In this document: piece by piece, positions 5,152 to 37,805 of the stretch
Position numbering within the stretch: position 1 is the first letter of the stretch
How the letters are laid out: each line of letters opens with the position of its first letter
NCBI GenBank assembly: GCA_041661405.1
Contig: JBAZUL010000009.1
Location: 464-64,463 of the forward strand
Source of the DNA: Patescibacteria group bacterium
Lineage (GTDB): Bacteria; Patescibacteriota; Patescibacteriia; Patescibacteriales; JBAZCA01
Direction of reading: 5' to 3'
DNA length: 64,000 nucleotides
Program-made: the position numbers and the translations under genes
The notes under the pieces: model-generated
The model's database searches: none
What the model saw: only the letters and a program-made list of their open reading frames with translations
Told to the model about the DNA's origin: nothing

Positions 5152-6138
5152 TTAGTCGCGCTGGCCGGGACCGGGTTGCCCTTCAAAATCCATGTAAATG
5201 TCATTCCTCATAATATTCAGGCGGGGAATAATTTTTACTTCGGACGCGTAGGACGCGGACGTCGCCCAGCTTAAGGATATATCATGGCTTTCGCCGGACA
5301 TGAAATTCTCTTCAGTATATGAAGAAAGGCTTATAATCCGGCTTCCCTGATACAGAAGCGCCAAAAAATCAACGCTCCAGTAATTATAGGCGGTTTTGTT
5401 GGCGGCCGCAAACTGAACATTGGCAAAGTTGGTTTTTTTCGCGTTTTGGCCGTCTCCGCTGATGTCAAATTTCGGGTTTTCTATGGCAATATTCAGATGT
5501 TCATCTTTAAATTTCCGCCAGTCGGGTATTTCTTTAGCTTTAACCGGATGCCAGGCAATCTTATTTATTTTGAACTCCGCGCTGTAAGGGGTGGCTTCTG
5601 ATTCTTCGGACAGGGAGATGATAATTTTTTCCTCCCCGGGCAGGATGAAATCTTTTTTTTCGGACAGCTCTTCGCCGTTTACCCGAAACGTATAGGTAAA
5701 TTCGGCCCAATGTCTTGGGTTAGGATTTTTTGCTTCCAGTAAAAAATCGTAAGTTCCGGCCGAACCGTTGGCTAATGTTTGGACATCGCCGGTTTGGAGG
5801 GGTTCGGGCTGGTTGCTTTCAAAATATTCATGGCCCGCCACCCGGACGTTTGCCGCGTTATCCACCAAAGCCTGGTCTTCTTTCATGCCGACAAAAATAT
5901 AATAAACAAAACCGTAAAAGAAATAACCCCAGCCGAAAACCGAGACCGCGATTAAAAATCCGATCAAAGCCTTGCGCAGACGTTTAAGGTGCAAAATATA
6001 CCAAAGCCCGAAATTAAGTTTTTTGTCCGTTAACCCGGTCTGATCCGCGTAAGCGGGCGGACTTGCCTTGCGCGGTCCATCGGTGTCGCGGGACGAAGAA
6101 GGGCGGGTCTCAGCTTGGGATTCTTTTTTTGTTTGCAT
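5152..6138 (-). CDS. hypothetical membrane-anchored protein (disordered N-terminus, one TM region, extracytoplasmic domain)
   Basis: This is a long ORF. The start was set to the ATG at 6138 because the first 12 track codons translate the promoter at 6139-6174. Confidence 0.55.
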   Translation of the reverse strand: MQTKKESQAETRPSSSRDTDGPRKASPPAYADQTGLTDKKLNFGLWYILHLKRLRKALIGFLIAVSVFGWGYFFYGFVYYIFVGMKEDQALVDNAANVRVAGHEYFESNQPEPLQTGDVQTLANGSAGTYDFLLEAKNPNPRHWAEFTYTFRVNGEELSEKKDFILPGEEKIIISLSEESEATPYSAEFKINKIAWHPVKAKEIPDWRKFKDEHLNIAIENPKFDISGDGQNAKKTNFANVQFAAANKTAYNYWSVDFLALLYQGSRIISLSSYTEENFMSGESHDISLSWATSASYASEVKIIPRLNIMRNDIYMDFEGQPGPGQRD

Positions 6139-6946: not shown

Positions 6947-7825
6947 TCATCTCCCGCCTGCTCCGGTCGGCGGCTGGCATATTTGGATACCGCCATACCC
7001 CCAGAAACAGAAGTTGCTTTGAGAGGATTTGCCGCTAATCGTGACCTCGGCGACCGGACAGGAATTTGCCAGGTTTTCGTAATAGTCGAGCGTCACTCTG
7101 AAAACGAACTGGAGCGTCCGGTTTCCCCACTGATCGGTTTTTTCTTCGACCGTTGACCCGGCCACGAAAGCGATTTGGTCGATAACAAGGCTGACCGGAT
7201 CGCCGACACGGATTGTTGTGTCGAAAAATGGTTGAAGAACAACCGCAATTTCCATATCCTGTGATCCGCGTCGACACGTTTTTATCACGTAGAACTGAAA
7301 CGGCTGGATGTCCATGACGCGGCTAGCCGAAAAGTAATAGCCCTTTGATATAGGAATACGAATTTCTATGAGGTAGCTCCCGTCTTCAGTGAAGTACTGC
7401 TGCCCGCTTCCTTTTCCTTCGGAGCCAACTACAGGGAAGCCAAAACTTCCCTCATTCATCCCCAACGGAAAAGAGCCAACACGGCGGCCATTCACAAAGA
7501 CTCGAGCTCGTTTCCCGGCCCAAAATTCCGACTGGAAGTTGACGTTGGCGGAAAAATACAGCCTGTTCACGGCTCCGCCCGTTTCCCAACCTCGCCAAAT
7601 ATCAACGACCGGTACATCCACATTTCCGCCAAACATTCCACTAACCGCGCTTGTGCCGACCGCTACCGTTGCGCCACTGGTGCTTTTTACAGCTACCTTT
7701 GCCGGAGGCGGGTTTTGCTCGCGACTATCACCCGCCAAGACCTCGGCGGGGTTGAAGGTTGCTAAAAAAGTAAACGAAAAAACGCCAATAACCATGGCCA
7801 GCAGAACACGTGTCAAACCTTTCAT
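6947..7825 (-). CDS. secreted hypothetical protein
   Basis: The ATG at 7825 is preceded by GGAGGA 5 nt upstream. The product starts with signal peptide MKGLTRVLLAMVIGVFSFTFLA. I recognise no family. Confidence 0.6.
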   Translation of the reverse strand: MKGLTRVLLAMVIGVFSFTFLATFNPAEVLAGDSREQNPPPAKVAVKSTSGATVAVGTSAVSGMFGGNVDVPVVDIWRGWETGGAVNRLYFSANVNFQSEFWAGKRARVFVNGRRVGSFPLGMNEGSFGFPVVGSEGKGSGQQYFTEDGSYLIEIRIPISKGYYFSASRVMDIQPFQFYVIKTCRRGSQDMEIAVVLQPFFDTTIRVGDPVSLVIDQIAFVAGSTVEEKTDQWGNRTLQFVFRVTLDYYENLANSCPVAEVTISGKSSQSNFCFWGYGGIQICQPPTGAGGR

Positions 7826-9452: not shown

Positions 9453-9987
9453 ATTGTTCTTTAACCTTGTTTTTTAAGGTTTTCATTCCTCTATGTATAA
9501 TGACGTAAATGTTAGTCATTGTTTTACCGGTAATATCCGCGATTTCCTTTATGCTAAGCTGGTCAAGATATTTGTAGATTATCATCTGACGCTGGTCATC
9601 GGCTAATTCTGAGAGATACTTTTTTATCATTTTAAGATCCATGTCCCGGTCAATTTTATCTTCCAGCCTATCGTTTCCCTCGTCAGGCAGGTTAAAAGCC
9701 TCCTCTAAATCAACGGAGGGCGGTTTTTTCGTCCGGTAATGATCTATAACCATATTGCCCGCCACCCGGTAAAGAAGGCTCTTAAAGCTGTCAACTTTCT
9801 TCCCTTTCCGGAGATACTGCCAGGTTCGGAGAAAAGTTTCCTGGAGCATTTCCTCGGCTAAAGCGTTGTCGTTTACGCGGTAATATATGTGGCGGAGTAT
9901 GTCTTTGGAAAATTGGTCATAAGCGGCGATGAATTCTTTTTCAGCGATATTATTTTGTTCCATAACCCAATTATGCCTTTCTTTCAT
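9394..9987 (-). CDS. RNA polymerase sigma factor, sigma-70 (ECF-like) family
   Basis: Region 2 is LQETFLRTWQYL...LYRVAGNMVIDHYR. The region 4 HTH is LSIKEIADITGKTMTNIYVIIHRGMKTLK. Confidence 0.85.
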   Translation of the reverse strand: MKERHNWVMEQNNIAEKEFIAAYDQFSKDILRHIYYRVNDNALAEEMLQETFLRTWQYLRKGKKVDSFKSLLYRVAGNMVIDHYRTKKPPSVDLEEAFNLPDEGNDRLEDKIDRDMDLKMIKKYLSELADDQRQMIIYKYLDQLSIKEIADITGKTMTNIYVIIHRGMKTLKNKVKEQYDQREKIKINARESSELSD

Positions 9988-29075: not shown

Positions 29076-30554
29076 TCACAGATAATTTTTTAATTTGGGA
29101 AGAATTATTTTCAGCCAGACAGAAAACTTTTCAGGATTATTTTTTATTTCTTTTTCCAGGTCGCGAAGTTTAATCCATCTCCAATCCTCAACTTCTTCGC
29201 GATTTAAAACCGGCCTGGCGTTATGCTTCCCGATTAAAACGTGATCGTGCTCGTTTTCCTTTAAGCCATGATCAAGCTTAACCCGGTAATTAAAAGAAAA
29301 ACATTCTTTCAGCCTGCAGGAAAACCCCATTTCTTCTTTTAACCTTCTTTCACCGGCGCTGATGACTGATTCGCCCGGTCGCGGGTGCGAACAGCAGGCG
29401 TTAGACCAGGTTCCGCCGGAATGGTATTTTTTCTTCGCTCGTTTTTGAAGGAGAAATTCGCCTTTGGAATTAAATATCACAATTGAAAACGCCCGGTGTA
29501 AGAGTCCTTTTTTATGGGCTTTTATTTTTTCCTCGCTTCCCTTTTCCCGGTTTTTCCCGTTAAGGAGAATAAGTCTTTCAGGGATTGGCGGGGCTTCATC
29601 AAGGTCTTCAAGAAATATCCTTTTTACGCGTTTAAAATTATCGGATTTTTTCAGGTCATAATAAAAGTAATGCATCCGCTCGGCCGATTTTATGAGGTGC
29701 AAACCGTATTCAAGGATTTTTAGCTCATTCTCGTCGTAAGGCACCTTGCCATAACCCCGAAAAAAAACCTGGCGAGCGAGCTTCTGCTTTTTTTTATCCT
29801 GCCAGGACTTAAGATGCCGCCACCACCAGGAAAGCTCAATAAAATCCCAAAGCCAGATTCCGGACCAGGCGTTATCCCAGTCAATTAATATCAGCCCCTG
29901 GCCTTTGGTCCAGATAGTATTTTTTCCGGTCGCGTCGCCATGAACAAGTACCGGCTTAAAGTCTTTTTTAAAAGGCTCTAAAGCCTGCCGAACTCTTAAA
30001 CCCATTTTTTTAGATATCCCTTCTTCAATCAGCCCGTCAGCGATCATCCGTTTTAAAAAACCGTCCGCCCGCTTTAGTTTGTAGCCAATAAAATCATGCG
30101 ACTTGCCTTCGCCTTTCCGCAATGGGCCGAATTTTTTTACTTTAATTTCATGAATTTTACGAAGAATTTTTCCTTTTTCAAAATATGATTTTTTATAGTC
30201 CAAAAGTCCTTTTTTAACCGCTTCTGATCCGTCAATCCCTTCGGCGTACTCGGCAACCATGAACCCGTGCGGAAAATATTTTTTATCCCGGGTAAAATGA
30301 ACCAGCTTGGCGTGCGCTATGCCGCGCCGGCTAAGTTCTTTTTCAATCCATTCCAGCTTGCCGTTTTCCGGCCAGTTTTCAAAATTAAAAACCCGGACAA
30401 TGTAATTTCCAGCTGATGTTTTTATTTTATAGACATGGTTGATTGAGCCGTTTTTTGTTTCTTCCAAACTAAAAATTTTAATTTTTAAGGCTTCCTCAAC
30501 CGCCGATACTATATTTTTTTTCAGTTTTTTCAGGCCGCTTTTGGTATTTTTCAT
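29076..30554 (-). CDS. fusion protein: N-terminal APH/choline-kinase-type phosphotransferase plus C-terminal type 1 isopentenyl-diphosphate delta-isomerase (Nudix fold)
   Basis: The kinase motifs are LVHGDATGKNTIW and LIDWDNAW. The IDI-1 motifs are LLHRAFSIVIFNSKGEFLLQKRAKKKYHSGGTWSNACCSHP and RRLKEEMGF. It is one uninterrupted 492-aa ORF. Confidence 0.75.
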   Translation of the reverse strand: MKNTKSGLKKLKKNIVSAVEEALKIKIFSLEETKNGSINHVYKIKTSAGNYIVRVFNFENWPENGKLEWIEKELSRRGIAHAKLVHFTRDKKYFPHGFMVAEYAEGIDGSEAVKKGLLDYKKSYFEKGKILRKIHEIKVKKFGPLRKGEGKSHDFIGYKLKRADGFLKRMIADGLIEEGISKKMGLRVRQALEPFKKDFKPVLVHGDATGKNTIWTKGQGLILIDWDNAWSGIWLWDFIELSWWWRHLKSWQDKKKQKLARQVFFRGYGKVPYDENELKILEYGLHLIKSAERMHYFYYDLKKSDNFKRVKRIFLEDLDEAPPIPERLILLNGKNREKGSEEKIKAHKKGLLHRAFSIVIFNSKGEFLLQKRAKKKYHSGGTWSNACCSHPRPGESVISAGERRLKEEMGFSCRLKECFSFNYRVKLDHGLKENEHDHVLIGKHNARPVLNREEVEDWRWIKLRDLEKEIKNNPEKFSVWLKIILPKLKNYL

Positions 30555-32142: not shown

Positions 32143-32164
32143 TTTGCTCGGGGGCTTGGATTCG
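32143..32164. repeat. distal att-like copy of the tRNA-Gln 3' end
   Basis: It is identical over 22 nt to 37731-37752. Weaker similarity extends to 32129. Confidence 0.85.
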
Positions 32165-32239
32165 CCCAAGCATGCGCTGGGCGGTTTAGCGACGAATTCT
32201 TTTTTATTTTTATAGTTTGATATCGTATTATAAGTAATT

Positions 32240-33334
32240 TTATCCTGGAGGTTTATTTAAATATCGCTCTAAAATAGATAAAAATTCTTTTGTATCAAGA
32301 AAATAATTAGGATAAGCCTTTCTAAGATCTTTAGCGGTATCGGCTTCAACAAGGACTATATCTTTATTGAGTTTTTCTTGGTTTGCTTTTTTCTGGGCTT
32401 CTGAATAGGCGAGATTAGCTTCCTCTTCGTTGCTCTTTTCAAAAGTTGTGACAGTTAATTCTTTGGTATCAATGCTCAAACTTAAAAGGTAAAAATGTGA
32501 TTTATGTTTTTGTTCTAGCTGCCCAATTATTCTGACTAATTTTGCCCAGCTTGTAATTTTATCTACAACCCTAAGTTCAGCAGAAAGACGCTTAACCTGA
32601 GAATGTAACTCAAATTTATCTTCGGGCGTATTAAGGACTTTGGGTGTTTTTTCAAAATCAGCAAACACAGAACTTATTAACCTAAAAAAATCTTTCCACT
32701 CTTTTTCTCCCTCGTTAGATTTTAATGCCTGTTTTGTGAAGTGATCCACCGTTTCAATAGCGGTTGCCCAAAAATGTTGAAGTTTTGATCTGACTTGAAT
32801 TTCAATCAGTAAACCGTTATATTTTTTCTGCTTCTTGTCGCTATTATATTTATAAATTAAGTGAATACCCCTATAACCATCAGGCTTGGGGCTAGTAATG
32901 TAATCTTTTTTGTTTTTAAAATGATGTTTAAGGTCGCAGTGTTTACCTTTTATATTTTTATCTACATGGTAATATTCATCACAAAGTTGTATTACTTTTT
33001 TAACATCTGAAAGCACCGCCCTACAGCCACCTATATCTTGCATCTGGGAAAGTTTCATCGTAGGCTCGCGCCCCTCATATTTACGTTGTAATTTTTTAAT
33101 AATTGCGGGCGTACGTTTAAGACGTTGAACAACTAAAGCCCCCTGGTCAACCTGCACAGACACACGCTTTAATCTTATTTTAAAGGTATGCAATGGAAAA
33201 CTATGAGAAGATCTCCAATTATCTAAAATAGCTGTAGCATTTTCCGTGTACTCTTTAGAAGAATTTTTGTTTATTAAGACTTCTCCTGCTTGATTTACCT
33301 CGCTCTTTTTATATTTAATTTCAGTCCAGGCCAT
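32240..33334 (-). CDS. RelA/SpoT (RSH) nucleotide pyrophosphokinase-domain protein with an uncharacterised C-terminal domain of about 150 aa
   Basis: The synthetase motifs appear in order: VQRLKRTPAIIKKL, DIGGCRAVL, PDGYRGIHLIY, EIQVRSKLQHFWATAIE. There is no hydrolase (HD) domain and no separate small partner ORF. Confidence 0.75.
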   Translation of the reverse strand: MAWTEIKYKKSEVNQAGEVLINKNSSKEYTENATAILDNWRSSHSFPLHTFKIRLKRVSVQVDQGALVVQRLKRTPAIIKKLQRKYEGREPTMKLSQMQDIGGCRAVLSDVKKVIQLCDEYYHVDKNIKGKHCDLKHHFKNKKDYITSPKPDGYRGIHLIYKYNSDKKQKKYNGLLIEIQVRSKLQHFWATAIETVDHFTKQALKSNEGEKEWKDFFRLISSVFADFEKTPKVLNTPEDKFELHSQVKRLSAELRVVDKITSWAKLVRIIGQLEQKHKSHFYLLSLSIDTKELTVTTFEKSNEEEANLAYSEAQKKANQEKLNKDIVLVEADTAKDLRKAYPNYFLDTKEFLSILERYLNKPPG

Positions 33335-33352
33335 ACGATTTTTAATAAAAAC

Positions 33353-34051
33353 TTATCTTATTGTAGCATACTGAAAATGCATAGCGTCAAAACTGCCAAT
33401 CCACCTGCCGCCCCACACAAACCCAACATCTTCAAAACATTTTACTAGATCTTCACCCATCTCAAAATTCTTTTGTCCAAATTGGTTCCATTGAGCATTT
33501 AAATCTATCGCGATTCCCCACGAGTGCATTGACCAAGTATTACCACCCCGCATTAAACGTTTATTTAAGCAGCCGCCAAAGGTTTTTATTTTATCGGCTA
33601 AATTTCTGTCAATAACATTTTTAAAGGCGAGTTGGAATTTAGGAGCAACGAGTCTATGGCAAGTAAAACCAAACCAACCTTTATGAGCAAAGGAATAATT
33701 ATCTACATGACCTAATTTATCGGCAAAAGCCGATAAATTACACCTAACCATATTTTGCTCATCCCAGCCAGATAGCTGGTGATTCCCGTAAACTTCAAAA
33801 CAGCGAGCTTGCGAAGGTGGATTATCTAAAGATGGGACTTTTGGAATCTGCTCTTGAAATAATGAACTCCAAGTCTGATCTCCAACTACTCCATCAGCGT
33901 GCAGTATTTTATCAATTTGATATTTTAATACTGCCGCTTCAGTTCTTGGACCGAATACTCCGTCAACAAAGCCAATATTATATCCAATTTCTGATAATTT
34001 TTGCTGTAATTTTTCTACTAATTGACCTTGAGAATTTTTTTGTAGCATCAT
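33353..34051 (-). CDS. peptidoglycan-binding domain plus M15 (VanY/endolysin-type) zinc peptidase, no signal peptide
   Basis: The N-terminus has a PG_binding_1 pattern (LQQKLSEIGYNIGFVDGVFGPRTEAAVLKYQ...DGVVGDQTW). The C-terminus has SMHSWGIAIDL and GFVWGGRW...DAMHFQ metal-ligand motifs. Confidence 0.75.
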   Translation of the reverse strand: MMLQKNSQGQLVEKLQQKLSEIGYNIGFVDGVFGPRTEAAVLKYQIDKILHADGVVGDQTWSSLFQEQIPKVPSLDNPPSQARCFEVYGNHQLSGWDEQNMVRCNLSAFADKLGHVDNYSFAHKGWFGFTCHRLVAPKFQLAFKNVIDRNLADKIKTFGGCLNKRLMRGGNTWSMHSWGIAIDLNAQWNQFGQKNFEMGEDLVKCFEDVGFVWGGRWIGSFDAMHFQYATIR

Positions 34052-34068: not shown

Positions 34069-34470
34069 TTAAATCTTTATATCAAGAGCATTTTTTAGAA
34101 TCTCCATATTTGATGATTTTAATTTATGCTCCCAAATTCTGATAATTTCCCAGCCAATTTTTTTATAATACTTATTTACTTCTTTGTCTCTTTTCTTGTT
34201 TCTTTCAATTTTCGTAATCCAGTATTTTTTATTAGTCGCTGGCAACCGGCAATGTTTTTTGCAACCGTGCCAAAAACATGAATCAAGAAAAATAACCGTT
34301 CTATACTTTTTTAATACTATATCCGGCTTGCCGAAATAATTTTTTACGTTTTTTCTGTATCTGTATCCGGCTTTCCAAAGAGCTTTTCTAAAATTTACTT
34401 CAATTTTGCTATCTTTACTTTTAACTCGGCTCATTATTTCGCTCCTTTGTTTTTTGGAAACCGTATCCAT
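34069..34470 (-). CDS. vsr: very short patch repair endonuclease
   Basis: RSEIMSRVKSKDSKIE...GKPDIVLKKYRTVIFLDSCFWHGC are canonical Vsr motifs. Confidence 0.9.
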   Translation of the reverse strand: MDTVSKKQRSEIMSRVKSKDSKIEVNFRKALWKAGYRYRKNVKNYFGKPDIVLKKYRTVIFLDSCFWHGCKKHCRLPATNKKYWITKIERNKKRDKEVNKYYKKIGWEIIRIWEHKLKSSNMEILKNALDIKI

Positions 34471-34474
34471 ATTT

Positions 34475-35533
34475 TTACCAATCGCTGATTTTTTTAAGTT
34501 TATTATATCCGCGTTTTTTAATAAATGGCAGCAATTCGGAATTAGACGGAAACTCTAGATTAAATTCCCTTTCCACGTCTTTTAATAAATTTTTACCCAA
34601 ATTATTTTTATACTTGTCGCTTAAGCAAATTTTATACCATTGATCTAAATCGTTCATAGTTATTATGCCTTGAATTTTTTCTCCCCAGCCCACTTGAGAC
34701 AATAAATTTTCTATCGCATCTTTTTCAGAGTCAATACAAACTACCACAATTCTATCGGCAGAAATTCCATTCGCGACATCTTCAATCAATTCTGGAGTTA
34801 AAGTTAAATGTTTAACCTGGATAGCCAAACCAAAATTGGCCCACATATCCAAGCCCCTATCGGCCGCGTTGGCTACGCCCGCCCTGTATAGAGCGGCTGG
34901 CAATATTATCTTAGTATTATTGGCATCAATTCCCATAACCATTTTGATAAAAGGCTGAAAATCCTTAAGTAGTTGTTCATCTTTGTTTAAAATTTCCAAC
35001 GTTATTTGCGCGCGCAAAGCTCTTACTATGGCAGAAAACAAAGCATACACTAAAATTTCATATATTTTATCAATGCTTCTTTTTAAACCGGGGTTATTTT
35101 TAAATAAACTTACTAATTTTTTTAAATCAAAGGAAGCTGCCGTTGAACCGCAAATATAATTACTGACTCCATAAACTGACGATAATCTTTCATTTAGAGC
35201 ATTATAAACATAAGCCTCCACCAATCCCCCGCGCGACTTATTGAAGCGACCCAAATCGCGAAGCAACCTAGGCGGTATCGCATTTTCATCAAAAATGTTG
35301 TCTTGAAATTTTTGGCTTGAAGTGCAAACTCTTCCTACTAAACGATTTGAGACCTCATCCCGCCATCTTTTAGAAACATTACGGTATGACTCCATGTCCG
35401 CCAAATCCCAACGTCGTTTATCGATTCTATGGTGATATAAAATTTCGGCGATTTGAATCGGTTTATATAAATGAACGCGCGATTTGCGTATTATTGCGTC
35501 GAGAGCTTTCTTTGAAATATTAATGTTAGGCAT
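34475..35533 (-). CDS. type II restriction endonuclease (HaeII-like by recollection)
   Basis: The gene lies between a C5-methyltransferase and vsr and overlaps the methyltransferase gene by 8 nt. The N-terminal SRVHLYKPIQIAEILYHHR resembles the HaeII family. Confidence 0.5.
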   Translation of the reverse strand: MPNINISKKALDAIIRKSRVHLYKPIQIAEILYHHRIDKRRWDLADMESYRNVSKRWRDEVSNRLVGRVCTSSQKFQDNIFDENAIPPRLLRDLGRFNKSRGGLVEAYVYNALNERLSSVYGVSNYICGSTAASFDLKKLVSLFKNNPGLKRSIDKIYEILVYALFSAIVRALRAQITLEILNKDEQLLKDFQPFIKMVMGIDANNTKIILPAALYRAGVANAADRGLDMWANFGLAIQVKHLTLTPELIEDVANGISADRIVVVCIDSEKDAIENLLSQVGWGEKIQGIITMNDLDQWYKICLSDKYKNNLGKNLLKDVEREFNLEFPSNSELLPFIKKRGYNKLKKISDW

Positions 35534-37301
35534 AAATTTTTTTTGATTTTATATTTAATGAATCAATTGCGCTTAATTCATTTTTCGGCGGCCGACTCAT
35601 CGCTTCTACCATGGCGCGTGCGACTGCCTGAATTTTAGGAATAACCACGCTATTTCCGGCCTGCTTTCTAGCTTGCGTATCAGGGACGACTATTTTATAA
35701 TTATCCGGGAATCCTTGCAGGCGAAACATTTCTCGCGGCGTAAGCCTCCTTTCTCCATTGACGGTTAAGTAATTATACGATCCATTCGCTCTTAGCGCGC
35801 ATGAATATGGGTGCATTCCGATGTTGCCTCCTTTATTTTCATGCCAAACAGAAGGACTTTGTGCGGGCTTTTTGCCCTGTTCTTTCAGGCGAACCTGCAG
35901 TTTTTGCTTAAAGCTATCGCTTAAATAATGTTTTTTATCAATTTTTCTATATGATTCTAAAATTTCGGCTAAAGTTTTTGTCTCCGAGCCGCTTGTCGGG
36001 AATTCAAATGGATAATTTTCTTTAAAGCCAACGATTATTATTCGCTCTCTTTTTTGAGGCACGCCAAAATCAAGACCATTTAAAACTTTATGATGCACAA
36101 AATATCCAAGATTTTTTAAGGCGTCTAAAATCACTTTAAATGTTCGCCCGCCATCATGGGAAGTAAGTTGTTTTACATTTTCCAAAAGAAAAGCTTTCGG
36201 TTGTTTGGCTTTTAGTATTCTCTCCACATCAAAAAATAAAGTTCCGCGAGTATCCGCGAACCCTCGTTTTTTGCCGATTATACTAAATGATTGGCAGGGA
36301 AAACCGCCAGTTAAAATATCATGATCAGGTATTTCATCGGCGGAAATTTTTGTTATATCGCCGTGCGGCCTTTCGCCAAAGTTAAATTCATACATCTCTT
36401 GGCACGGTTTATCAAATTCGGATGTAAAAACGCATTGACCTCCGTTACGTTCAAAGGCAATTCTAATGCCGCCGATACCCGCGAATAAATCTATAAAACG
36501 AAAAGGTTTGTTATTAGAAGATAAATTTTCACATAAATCATTTCCATAAAAATAGGTCTGTCTTGTTTCAGTTAACAGACTGAATAACGAAGCCTGCACT
36601 CCTTCCGCCGCATATTCTATGTTTGATAATTTTTTATTATTTATTTCGCTTAGCGCGCTATGCGCTCCATTCTTTGCGATAATAATAAAATCCACAACAT
36701 TCACTCCCATTAATTGACCCGCTTCAATAATTCTTTTTGCAACTTGCTTGTCCGATTCGCTTGGATTTGCATCTCCGGACGGATGATTATGAACTAAAAT
36801 TATGCCTGCCGCCCGCAACTCTAAACCTAACGCAAAAATTTCTCGCGGATGAACAATATTTTTATCAAGAGTGCCTATAAAAATTGTTTCTTTTTTAATT
36901 AAAGCGTTACGAGCGTTTAAATATAGACAAACCAAATGCTCTTGTTTTTTTTCTTTCAAGTCTGAAGCTAATTTTATCGCATCTTGCGCTGACAACACCA
37001 AATTGTCGGATGCATTTTGTCTGTCATATACTCTTTTTGCCAAAGCCAACACAGAAGTAATTTGCAGAGCTTTTGCTTGACCGATTCCAGAAATTTTCGT
37101 CAAATCGTCAACCGAAGCATTTATAAAATTATCGCCGAATCTTCTAAGTATTTTTTGCGATAAAACTTTAACATTAGTTCCTTTAATTCCGCTGCCAAGT
37201 AATATAGCTAAAAGTTCGCTATCGGTAAGCGCATCAGGCCCTTTTTCCAGAAATTTTTCTCTTGGGCGGTCAAATTTTGGAATATCTTTTAATTTTGTCA
37301 T
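35526..37301 (-). CDS. fusion protein: RadC-like JAB/MPN domain (about residues 1-225) plus DNA (cytosine-5)-methyltransferase
   Basis: The RadC part has DSELLAILLGSG, a HhH segment (ISGIGQAKA) and the JAMM motif ILVHNHPSGDANPSESD. The Dcm part has FIDLFAGIGG (motif I), GFPCQSFS (IV), ENV (VI), QKRERIIIVG (VIII) and GNSVVIP (X). Confidence 0.85.
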   Translation of the reverse strand: MTKLKDIPKFDRPREKFLEKGPDALTDSELLAILLGSGIKGTNVKVLSQKILRRFGDNFINASVDDLTKISGIGQAKALQITSVLALAKRVYDRQNASDNLVLSAQDAIKLASDLKEKKQEHLVCLYLNARNALIKKETIFIGTLDKNIVHPREIFALGLELRAAGIILVHNHPSGDANPSESDKQVAKRIIEAGQLMGVNVVDFIIIAKNGAHSALSEINNKKLSNIEYAAEGVQASLFSLLTETRQTYFYGNDLCENLSSNNKPFRFIDLFAGIGGIRIAFERNGGQCVFTSEFDKPCQEMYEFNFGERPHGDITKISADEIPDHDILTGGFPCQSFSIIGKKRGFADTRGTLFFDVERILKAKQPKAFLLENVKQLTSHDGGRTFKVILDALKNLGYFVHHKVLNGLDFGVPQKRERIIIVGFKENYPFEFPTSGSETKTLAEILESYRKIDKKHYLSDSFKQKLQVRLKEQGKKPAQSPSVWHENKGGNIGMHPYSCALRANGSYNYLTVNGERRLTPREMFRLQGFPDNYKIVVPDTQARKQAGNSVVIPKIQAVARAMVEAMSRPPKNELSAIDSLNIKSKKIYA

Positions 37302-37303
37302 AT

Positions 37304-37511
37304 TTATTTTATCAACTCGTCAACGCCGGTATTTAAACTAGACGCGATTTTTTGAACCGTCTGAATGCTCGGTTTGGTAATAACATCCGATTCTATCTTG
37401 GCGATAGCGCTATAAGGCATTTTAGCAGTTTTAGCTAAAGCGTCTTGGGTCAAATTTTTTTTTCGCTCTCCACTTCTTTATTTTTTCCCCGATTGTTTTC
37501 TTTTCTTCCAT
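37304..37511 (-). pseudogene. XRE-family HTH (R-M controller-like) gene interrupted by a +1 frameshift in an A9 tract
   Basis: MEEKKTIGEKIKKWRAKK is followed by the A9 run (37455-37463). Continuing in the +1 frame gives LTQDALAKTAKMPYSAIAKIESDVITKPSIQTVQKIASSLNTGVDELIK*. The stop lies 2 nt before the methyltransferase ATG. Confidence 0.65.
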
Positions 37512-37513
37512 AG

Positions 37514-37534
37514 CATCTTAGTATATATAAGATG
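37514..37534. promoter_or_regulatory. C-box-like palindrome overlapping the -10 of the HTH gene
   Basis: CATCTTA-gtatata-TAAGATG has 7-bp arms. On the minus strand TATACT is followed by 8 nt and then the ATG. Confidence 0.5.
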
Positions 37535-37730: not shown

Positions 37731-37752
37731 TTTGCTCGGGGGCTTGGATTCG
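37731..37752. repeat. proximal att-like repeat (tRNA-Gln 3' end plus 4 nt)
   Basis: It is identical to 32143-32164. Confidence 0.85.
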
Positions 37753-37805
37753 AACCAAAATTCTCAGGTTCAGAGCCTGATGTCCTGCCGTTAGACGACC
37801 CCCGA
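37735..37805 (-). tRNA. tRNA-Gln (anticodon CTG)
   Basis: A hand-folded 71-nt cloverleaf has acceptor TCGGGGG/CCCCCGA, anticodon stem TCAGG/CCTGA with loop CTCTGAA, and T arm TTTGG-TTCGAAT-CCAAG. Confidence 0.85.

Follow-up and report, generated by a model that had tools for sequence, protein, structure and literature searches.

Two neighbouring genes on a 64-kb stretch of DNA from a metagenome-assembled genome (MAG) of the Patescibacteria group (contig JBAZUL010000009.1, positions 464 to 64,463; hereafter the window, meaning that whole stretch) are best read as independent passengers of a mosaic island of ~5.6 kb, a reading to which we assign a probability of about 0.78. One encodes a RelA/SpoT homologue (RSH) that by sequence and predicted fold is a CapRel, a toxic small alarmone synthetase (toxSAS) fused to its own antitoxin, and the other a signal-less M15 zinc peptidase with a peptidoglycan (PG)-binding domain that would serve as a backbone gene of the mobile element. 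Both proteins are found exactly on the source record, as "RelA/SpoT domain-containing protein" and "M15 family metallopeptidase", and their open reading frames (ORFs; 364 and 232 aa) lie on the minus strand, 18 nt apart, where a first-pass annotation made from the sequence had placed them (Table 1). That annotation saw in the pair a candidate new defence module; the part that stood is that the RSH protein appears to be a toxSAS-type enzyme fused to its own regulator, probably acting in phage defence, and the part that did not is the two-gene system of RSH protein and peptidase. The gene pair would then be an accident of cassette shuffling and not a new system, which removes a false lead and leaves as new elements only the phyletic extension of CapRel and the mosaic, lysin-anchored island.

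The assignment of the RSH protein to CapRel was supported along its entire length. The only Pfam match was RelA_SpoT (PF04607; residues 70-191, E 6e-16), with no HD hydrolase domain, in agreement with the first-pass annotation. Full-length matches were obtained with the PADLOC model PDC-S33 (residues 1-360 on positions 1-343 of 349, E 1.5e-117, 390.9 bits), with phrog_4773 (E 1.4e-95) and, in a phmmer search, with the CapRel structures 7ZTB/9ERV (E 9e-41, query residues 5-359 on chain residues 12-370). The C-terminal ~150 aa, which the first-pass annotation was unable to place, aligned over their whole length with the antitoxin/sensor domain of CapRelSJ46, and the profile hidden Markov model (HMM) and structure-prediction searches it had suggested for residues ~215-364 identified the pseudo-ZFD and YXXY elements of CapRel.

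Individual functional positions gave the same picture. In CapRelSJ46, R79 and R116 coordinate adenine, Y155 lies in the G-loop and Y352/Y355 form the YXXY neutralisation motif, with A77, V338, L339, A341 and A351 as interface residues (PMC9712102). These were mapped through the phmmer alignment to 7ZTB, whose chain numbering agrees with that of PMC9712102, and correspond to R71 (R79), R105 (R116), Y154 (Y155), Y341 (Y352), Y344 (Y355), V327 (V338), L328 (L339) and A340 (A351) of the window protein; the interface residues A77 and A341 are replaced, by V69 and E330. All eight retained residues are invariant in the 16 sequences of our RSH alignment (A1), and the YXXY motif (Y341-P-N-Y344) lies within a hexapeptide, AYPNYF, that is itself invariant in 16/16 sequences. 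Compared with the window protein, the homologues were most alike in the YXXY switch (mean identity 0.79), followed by the toxSYNTH core (0.68), and least alike in the pseudo-ZFD (0.49) and the C-terminal helix (0.43). A variable sensor domain is the pattern reported for CapRel, and this profile matches that of a diversifying sensor and would be consistent with the sensing of phage proteins. A segment of 13 residues at ~122-134 of the toxSYNTH domain (HVDKNIKGKHCD; predicted local distance difference test, pLDDT, <50) is an insertion relative to CapRelSJ46; it was present in the closest Patescibacteria homologues and missing from the archaeal-type sequences of alignment A1.

Structure prediction pointed in the same direction. 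The AlphaFold2 (AF2) model, built with 16 homologues, had a pLDDT of 80.7, and the top solved structures retrieved with it by Foldseek were those of the Salmonella tRNA pyrophosphokinase CapRel (369-373 columns, E 4e-23 and 2e-22, TM-scores of 0.65-0.69). Small alarmone synthetases were matched with E values some 14 orders of magnitude worse, over the N-terminal half only, and this half of the model superposes with RelQ/RelP structures. Towards the C-terminus the model has three strands (281-287, 293-298 and 324-330) and a helix (300-319) between the second and the third, an arrangement that in this prediction is the pseudo-ZFD topology; predicted helices at 210-274 and 349-360 flank it, and the AYPNYF switch precedes the terminal helix. 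The model deviates from the open crystal forms of CapRel by a root-mean-square deviation of 9-10 Å, which is compatible with a modelled closed state. With all the in-silico tests of family membership giving the same answer, the RSH protein appears to be a CapRel-family fused toxin-antitoxin whose C-terminal part is the predicted antitoxin/sensor, made up of the pseudo-ZFD and the YXXY switch. No antitoxin-sized ORF adjoins the gene, as an ORF check showed and as had first been noted, because the antitoxin/sensor is fused within the RSH protein.

CapRelSJ46, from a prophage of the Salmonella phage SJ46, is a fused toxSAS tRNA pyrophosphokinase triggered by a phage capsid protein (PMC9712102, PMC11578894). 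In its resting state a 3-10 helix with the YXXY motif blocks the ATP-donor site, binding of the phage protein opens the lock, and tRNA is pyrophosphorylated (PMC9712102; PMC11782079). By analogy, the C-terminal pseudo-ZFD of the window protein would fold back at rest on the toxSYNTH domain, with Y341 and Y344 plugging the ATP-donor site lined by R71 and R105. A phage protein that bound the pseudo-ZFD would hold the protein open and release this lock, and the freed toxSYNTH domain, with Y154 in its G-loop, would pyrophosphorylate the 3' ends of tRNAs, leading to a halt of translation and to abortive infection. Like CapRelSJ46, the window protein is encoded by a single ORF on mobile DNA, is of similar length (364 vs 373 aa) and resembles it in sequence and fold over the full length, with equivalents of R79, R116 and Y155, the YXXY motif, the interface residues V338, L339 and A351, the predicted pseudo-ZFD topology and a variable sensor domain. 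Unlike CapRelSJ46, it shares only ~31% identity with that protein, has V69 and E330 in place of A77 and A341, carries the toxSYNTH insertion, and belongs to a Patescibacteria MAG with relatives in DPANN archaea, outside the name-giving Cyanobacteria, Actinobacteria and Proteobacteria.

Two other groupings bear on this assignment. By its full-length HMM match the protein belongs to PDC-S33, a single-gene "phage defence candidate" of PADLOC whose label rests on genomic association and of which we found no mention in a literature search. With FaRel2/ATfaRel2 and PhRel2 (PMC11782079) it has in common the toxSYNTH fold and the YXXY motif blocking the ATP-donor site; those systems have a separate antitoxin gene, whereas the antitoxin of the window protein would be fused and no small ORF is adjacent. 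Among DPANN archaea (Woese-, Pace-, Nano- and Micrarchaeota), MAGs of Methanoperedens/Methanosarcinales and Patescibacteria, full-length CapRel-type homologues at 45-56% identity were very frequent. This spread over DPANN archaea and Patescibacteria suggests, as far as the sequences can tell, cross-domain exchange among ultra-small symbionts; our literature search found no paper linking CapRel to either group, and CapRel was named in none of the papers that it listed. The window protein would thus be a taxonomically distant addition to the known CapRel kind, and its presence in Patescibacteria, with relatives in DPANN archaea, would widen the known range of this direct sensing of phages to ultra-small symbionts, about whose phages hardly anything is known.

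The proposal of a two-gene system can be put as an abortive-infection module with two effectors, in which, once a phage is sensed, the RSH protein would halt translation and the cytoplasmic peptidase would lyse the cell or modulate the RSH enzyme. Consistent with such a module are the location in a defence island, the adjacency of the two genes on one strand with an 18-nt spacer and no predicted terminator, and the retention of the pair in two islands, in the window and at locus L001, where both genes are little diverged and under purifying selection. Co-occurrence of the two families was the defining test of this proposal; the first-pass annotation had itself proposed that its idea would be weakened if none were conserved elsewhere. 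Both families were searched with tblastn and profile HMMs on 335 loci, to which the gene tables of L336 and L337 were added. The RSH-homologue loci (n = 168; 2.26 Mb) comprised 8 contigs carrying three proteins at 66-77% identity to the window RSH protein, 80 GTDB loci (L016-L095; contigs of one genome per species, 40-56% identity, mostly from DPANN archaea, Patescibacteria and assorted bacteria) and 80 loci on viral contigs. The peptidase loci comprised 7 exact look-ups, 80 loci on viral contigs, 80 on metagenome contigs and two members of its 90% cluster, L336 (on a contig of GCA_041643175.1) and L337.

The peptidase family was found in 0/168 of the RSH loci, and an RSH gene, by tblastn, HMMs and gene tables, in 0/168 of the peptidase loci other than L001. 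A conserved pairing was accordingly rejected: it was absent from 336 related loci, the sole exception being L001, a near-identical copy of the same island in which the block from the helix-turn-helix (HTH) gene to the RSH gene has 87% DNA identity to the window. The peptidase is retained in close relatives of the island, where different genes stand at the position of the RSH gene, and the change comes at a sharp boundary. Collinearity with the window in blastn stops at 33344 in L002, 33337 in L176 (Ga0247841_10000783), 33340 in L336 and 33348 in L337, in every case within the spacer or a few bases from it, and runs on through the CapRel gene only in L001. The closest sister islands thus exchange the RSH gene for unrelated cargo exactly at the spacer, which argues against a functional unit.

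Other evidence also stands against a two-effector module. Many of the closest RSH homologues come from DPANN archaea, which are not known to have murein, and this would argue against the need for a murein hydrolase. A signal-less peptidase would require a membrane lesion to reach the wall, and translation arrest provides none; the peptidase, moreover, had no match among the catalogued defence proteins in the PADLOC scan. CapRelSJ46 is a self-contained single-protein system and, expressed in E. coli, acts on its own (PMC9712102); by this precedent the CapRel gene of the window would need no partner gene. Taken with the co-occurrence counts, these points make a two-effector module very unlikely.

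Several results nevertheless weigh against the reading of the two genes as independent passengers. Synonymous divergence (dS) between the window and L001 is 0.24 for the peptidase and 0.13 for the RSH gene, compared with 0.95-1.5 for the restriction-modification (R-M) genes, and the low values could reflect transfer of the two genes as a block. They are probably co-transcribed, given the common strand, the 18-nt distance and the lack of a predicted terminator, and a local synergy is conceivable. The co-occurrence screen was aimed at the PG_binding_1/M15 family only and many of the comparison contigs were short, the role of the peptidase as an element backbone gene is based on six loci, and the island and window ORFs include no holin-like ORF and no phage structural genes, which leaves the route of the peptidase to the wall without a candidate. 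On the first of these points, the peptidase of L176, an island without an RSH gene, is just as close (dS of 0.28 to the window copy and 0.125 to the L001 copy). All genes were under purifying selection (nonsynonymous to synonymous ratio, dN/dS, 0.04-0.15), with a mosaic pattern of divergence. The operon structure of the island was read from spacing only; no terminator was predicted between its genes or after the RSH gene, and promoter-like sites were at background level (20 found vs 20.3 expected).

The peptidase has the architecture that the first-pass annotation had described. Pfam identified PG_binding_1 (residues 8-64, E 2.8e-14) and Peptidase_M15_4 (PF13539; residues 169-228, E 6.7e-17), and the zinc triad of the pattern H-x6-D...H, with H176 and D183 in SMHSWGIAIDL and H225 in DAMHFQ, was invariant in 15/15 aligned homologues. 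No signal peptide or transmembrane segment was found, with no 19-residue stretch attaining a hydropathy of 1.6, and the ATG lies 17 nt from the stop of the Vsr gene, so that there is no room for a longer N-terminus. PHROG searches matched endolysin families, including phrog_17001 over nearly the full length, and the best BFVD match, aligned over the full length, was the endolysin of Paracoccus phage vB_PmaS-R3. The structural model (pLDDT 85.1) matched phiKZ gp144, SleB and the AP3 endolysin in the fold of its PG-binding domain, Ply500, LysB4 and ChiX in its catalytic domain, and the Streptomyces zinc DD-peptidase 1LBU in overall layout. With dN/dS of 0.04-0.15 among four copies, the gene is maintained by selection, and we conclude from sequence and model that the protein is probably an active, selected murein peptidase of the endolysin type. 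It most likely would cut the stem peptides of peptidoglycan once a membrane lesion or a holin-like protein gave it access to the wall.

In kind, the protein is a further member of the known PG_binding_1 plus M15 lysin architecture. Phage endolysins with PG_binding_1 and M15/VanY-like domains (phrog_17001, phrog_2649, vB_PmaS-R3, and Ply500 and LysB4 for the catalytic domain) have the same domain order, size and H-D-H site and likewise no signal peptide; unlike them, the window peptidase lies outside a phage genome or a holin-adjacent lysis cassette, has no adjoining holin, and shares at most 37-39% identity with its homologues on viral contigs. Among the neighbours of two full-length viral homologues (L096 and L097), PHROG returned one Sak4-like match and two weak structural matches, so that a lysis cassette was not demonstrable there. 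The zinc DD-peptidase of Streptomyces albus G (1LBU) has the same two-domain layout and is a secreted enzyme. The Serratia peptidase ChiX (5OPZ) is a precedent for a signal-less LAS peptidase that serves a cell and not a phage; it relies on the holin-like ChiW, which has no counterpart in the window. A literature search combining Patescibacteria with M15, endolysin or peptidoglycan hydrolase returned nothing relevant.

The settings of the homologues leave room for more than one role, which may be element release, host lysis or wall remodelling. Homologues at 50-74% identity occur on Patescibacteria-type contigs in mixed settings: some follow an S24/LexA-type repressor, stand beside a serine recombinase or lie near very large ORFs, and those of ~12 loci (55-58% identical) are in a stable chromosomal synteny, SSB-S18-L9-BFN-...-DJ-1-PEP-MutL-like (PEP being the peptidase gene). 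These last neighbours recall the caveat of the first-pass annotation that a housekeeping peptidase family exported by another route would weaken its proposal, and in part it does apply, as the family has stable chromosomal members beside housekeeping genes. The main alternative role for this copy is accordingly that of a cellular wall hydrolase of Patescibacteria, exported non-classically by a holin-like route as for Serratia ChiX, which would remodel the cell's own wall or attack that of a host bacterium and be on the island incidentally. Besides the stable synteny, this would agree with the resemblance of the catalytic domain to ChiX, with the fact that nearly all aligned family members start directly with the PG-binding domain, and with the small membrane proteins that adjoin the peptidase gene in 16/58 loci, a count from a crude hydropathy screen that is suggestive only of a holin-like link. 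The window copy and its closest relatives (85-96% identity), however, are all on mobile mosaic islands beside R-M cassettes, recombinases or Rep, and no export partner was found in the window, so that we consider an incidental cellular hydrolase unlikely. For this copy we prefer an element-associated function in lysis or release, to which we would give about even odds.

A further explanation would make the peptidase a functionless, decaying endolysin of a prophage or satellite and the island a prophage remnant. The endolysin-like architecture and best matches, the lack of a holin in the window, and an island that has no integrase and a frameshifted controller gene where relatives have a serine integrase would all suit such decay. 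Against it, the zinc triad is intact and dN/dS is low, phage structural genes were seen in 0/6 related islands, and the peptidase is the best-conserved gene of a mosaic block (in L176, 94% identity vs 73% for Vsr and 57% for Dcm); decay is therefore very unlikely.

Comparison of the related islands favours instead a peptidase that stays in place as cassettes are exchanged around it. The window-type peptidase is 85-96% identical in L001, L002, L176, L336 and L337, whose flanking genes differ. L002 and L337 have the HTH, RadC/Dcm, HaeII, Vsr and peptidase genes in common with the window (82-86% DNA identity), and in the RSH position a protein of ~172 aa with four predicted transmembrane segments (4-TM), followed by other ORFs. 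In L176, which adjoins a tRNA-Asn and a large serine recombinase, the peptidase is accompanied by an HpaII-type restriction endonuclease, by Vsr and RadC-Dcm proteins with the lower identities given above, and by different downstream ORFs. For L336 the similarity to the window is confined to the peptidase gene (715 bp at 87% DNA identity), which in that locus comes after genes for an N6/N4 methyltransferase and a HinfI-type restriction endonuclease; the same contig also encodes a large serine recombinase and a rolling-circle Rep. In L001 the same block as in the window has unlike flanks, and with no tRNA in them its insertion site is undefinable. The peptidase would thus be the conserved anchor, or backbone, of small integrative elements in which Type II R-M cassettes are swapped upstream and cargo downstream, and CapRel would be one of several occupants of the downstream slot, in the window and the near-identical L001. 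The alternative cargo genes of L002, L337 and L176 had no PHROG, Pfam or PADLOC assignment.

P2/P4-like elements and other islands are hotspots of defence cargo flanked by conserved backbone genes. Our islands are like these in their conserved anchor, in exchangeable defence cassettes on both sides and in sharp breakpoints at gene boundaries; they differ in their lysin-type anchor, in their very small size (~5-7 kb) with a serine recombinase and/or rolling-circle Rep, and in their Patescibacteria hosts. A bolder extension, which we regard as unlikely, is that the endolysin-type peptidase is the core gene of an undescribed family of Patescibacteria mini-elements acting as exchangeable carriers of defence genes. 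As a whole, this doubtful scheme would comprise elements of ~5-7 kb with a large serine recombinase and/or rolling-circle Rep and insertion at tRNA genes, an R-M system of HaeII, HpaII or HinfI type always directly upstream of the peptidase, and a downstream slot holding CapRel, the 4-TM protein or other cargo. If it were true, the lysin would have its own function, for example in element release or in killing cells that lose the element, and could cooperate with whatever cargo is there. Compact lysin-anchored islands could also show where to look for further cargo genes in these lineages.

Two features of the cargo slot were observed in addition. The 4-TM protein (L002 6061-6576, plus strand; L337 3528-4043, plus strand) starts 11 nt past the peptidase stop; PHROG and PADLOC gave no match for it and Pfam only a weak one, below threshold, to SfLAP, and it could act with the peptidase as a holin-like protein. 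The distal end of the slot is occupied by a segment of ~100 nt with GC-rich hairpins (L001 ~5757-5880, L176 ~9650-9760, L002 ~7370-7470), of which the window keeps only the first ~37 nt, before the att repeat; it had no Rfam match and may act as a site of recombination or mark the element's end.

The island itself is a classic att-flanked insertion at a tRNA gene (Table 1); the first-pass annotation spoke of an island and mentioned neither the tRNA nor the att-like repeats. With up to three mismatches allowed, the 22-nt terminal repeat, CGAATCCAAGCCCCCGAGCAAA, still occurs just twice in the 64-kb window, and none are expected in shuffled sequence; GC content is 0.36 within the ~5.6 kb and ~0.45 in the flanks. 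No recombinase or integrase was found among the ORFs or Pfam matches between the repeats, and the integrase has been lost or was never present. The Rfam scan of the island returned the tRNA only.

The five consecutive minus-strand ORFs from the methyltransferase to the RSH gene are separated by gaps of 4-18 nt or joined by an 8-nt overlap, and HMM matches bore out the R-M context first noted for them: the RadC-Dcm fusion, the HaeII-family endonuclease and Vsr. The R-M operon has its cognate methyltransferase, endonuclease, Vsr and HTH controller (C-protein), the last of them frameshifted. In the window this gene is split over two frames, the N-terminal part reading MEEKKTIGEKIKKWRAKKK and the rest NLTQDALAK...ELIK; L001 and L002 have it intact (68 aa), and in L176 it is part of a longer listed ORF. 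An assembly error, phase variation or decay could each account for the frameshift, which, if real, might deregulate the R-M operon.

Table 1. Position and basis of the features discussed (nt of the window; residues for the domain map).
Feature	Position	Strand	Basis
tRNA-Gln(CTG), integration target of the island	37734..37805	-	ARAGORN; Rfam tRNA, 58 bits, E 6e-11
attL-like 22-nt direct repeat CGAATCCAAGCCCCCGAGCAAA: last 19 nt of tRNA-Gln plus 3 nt	37731..37752	-	exact repeat
HTH controller (C-protein) gene of the R-M operon, frameshifted in an A-run	37304..37520	-	comparison with L001, L002, L176
RadC(JAB)-Dcm fusion, C-5 cytosine DNA methyltransferase	35526..37301	-	Pfam DNA_methylase E 8e-98, RadC E 1e-36; PADLOC MTase_II
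HaeII-family Type II restriction endonuclease	34475..35533	-	Pfam RE_HaeII E 1e-127; PADLOC REase_II
Vsr very-short-patch repair endonuclease	34069..34470	-	Pfam Vsr E 3e-29; TIGR00632 134.9 bits, above cutoff
Signal-less PG_binding_1 + Peptidase_M15_4 zinc peptidase, endolysin type, 232 aa; putative anchor gene between variable cassettes	33353..34051	-	Pfam, PHROG, alignments, structure matches
18-nt spacer between peptidase and CapRel gene	33335..33352	-	blastn end-points of related loci
Predicted CapRel-type fused toxSAS toxin-antitoxin, 364 aa	32240..33334	-	PADLOC PDC-S33, PDB 7ZTB/9ERV, AF2, Foldseek
Predicted domain map of the CapRel-type protein	toxSYNTH ~1-200; anchor helices ~201-275; pseudo-ZFD ~276-331; YXXY switch 341-344; C-terminal helix 349-360
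Remnant of ~100-nt hairpin-rich segment, far end of cargo slot	32165..32201	-	alignment A3; blastn among downstream regions
attR-like second copy of CGAATCCAAGCCCCCGAGCAAA (displaced tRNA-Gln 3' end)	32143..32164	-	exact repeat, 76 nt past RSH stop

Two further observations concern genes in and beside the island. The N-terminus of the C-5 methyltransferase is a RadC-like JAB domain with UPF0758_N and HhH, found also in L001, L002 and L176, and the fusion is retained even where the partner endonuclease switches from HaeII to HpaII type. Just outside the island, a minus-strand gene at 29076-30554, downstream of genes for a DUF2703 protein and an ArsP-type permease, encodes a 492-aa fusion of an aminoglycoside-phosphotransferase (APH)-like kinase domain and a NUDIX hydrolase domain.

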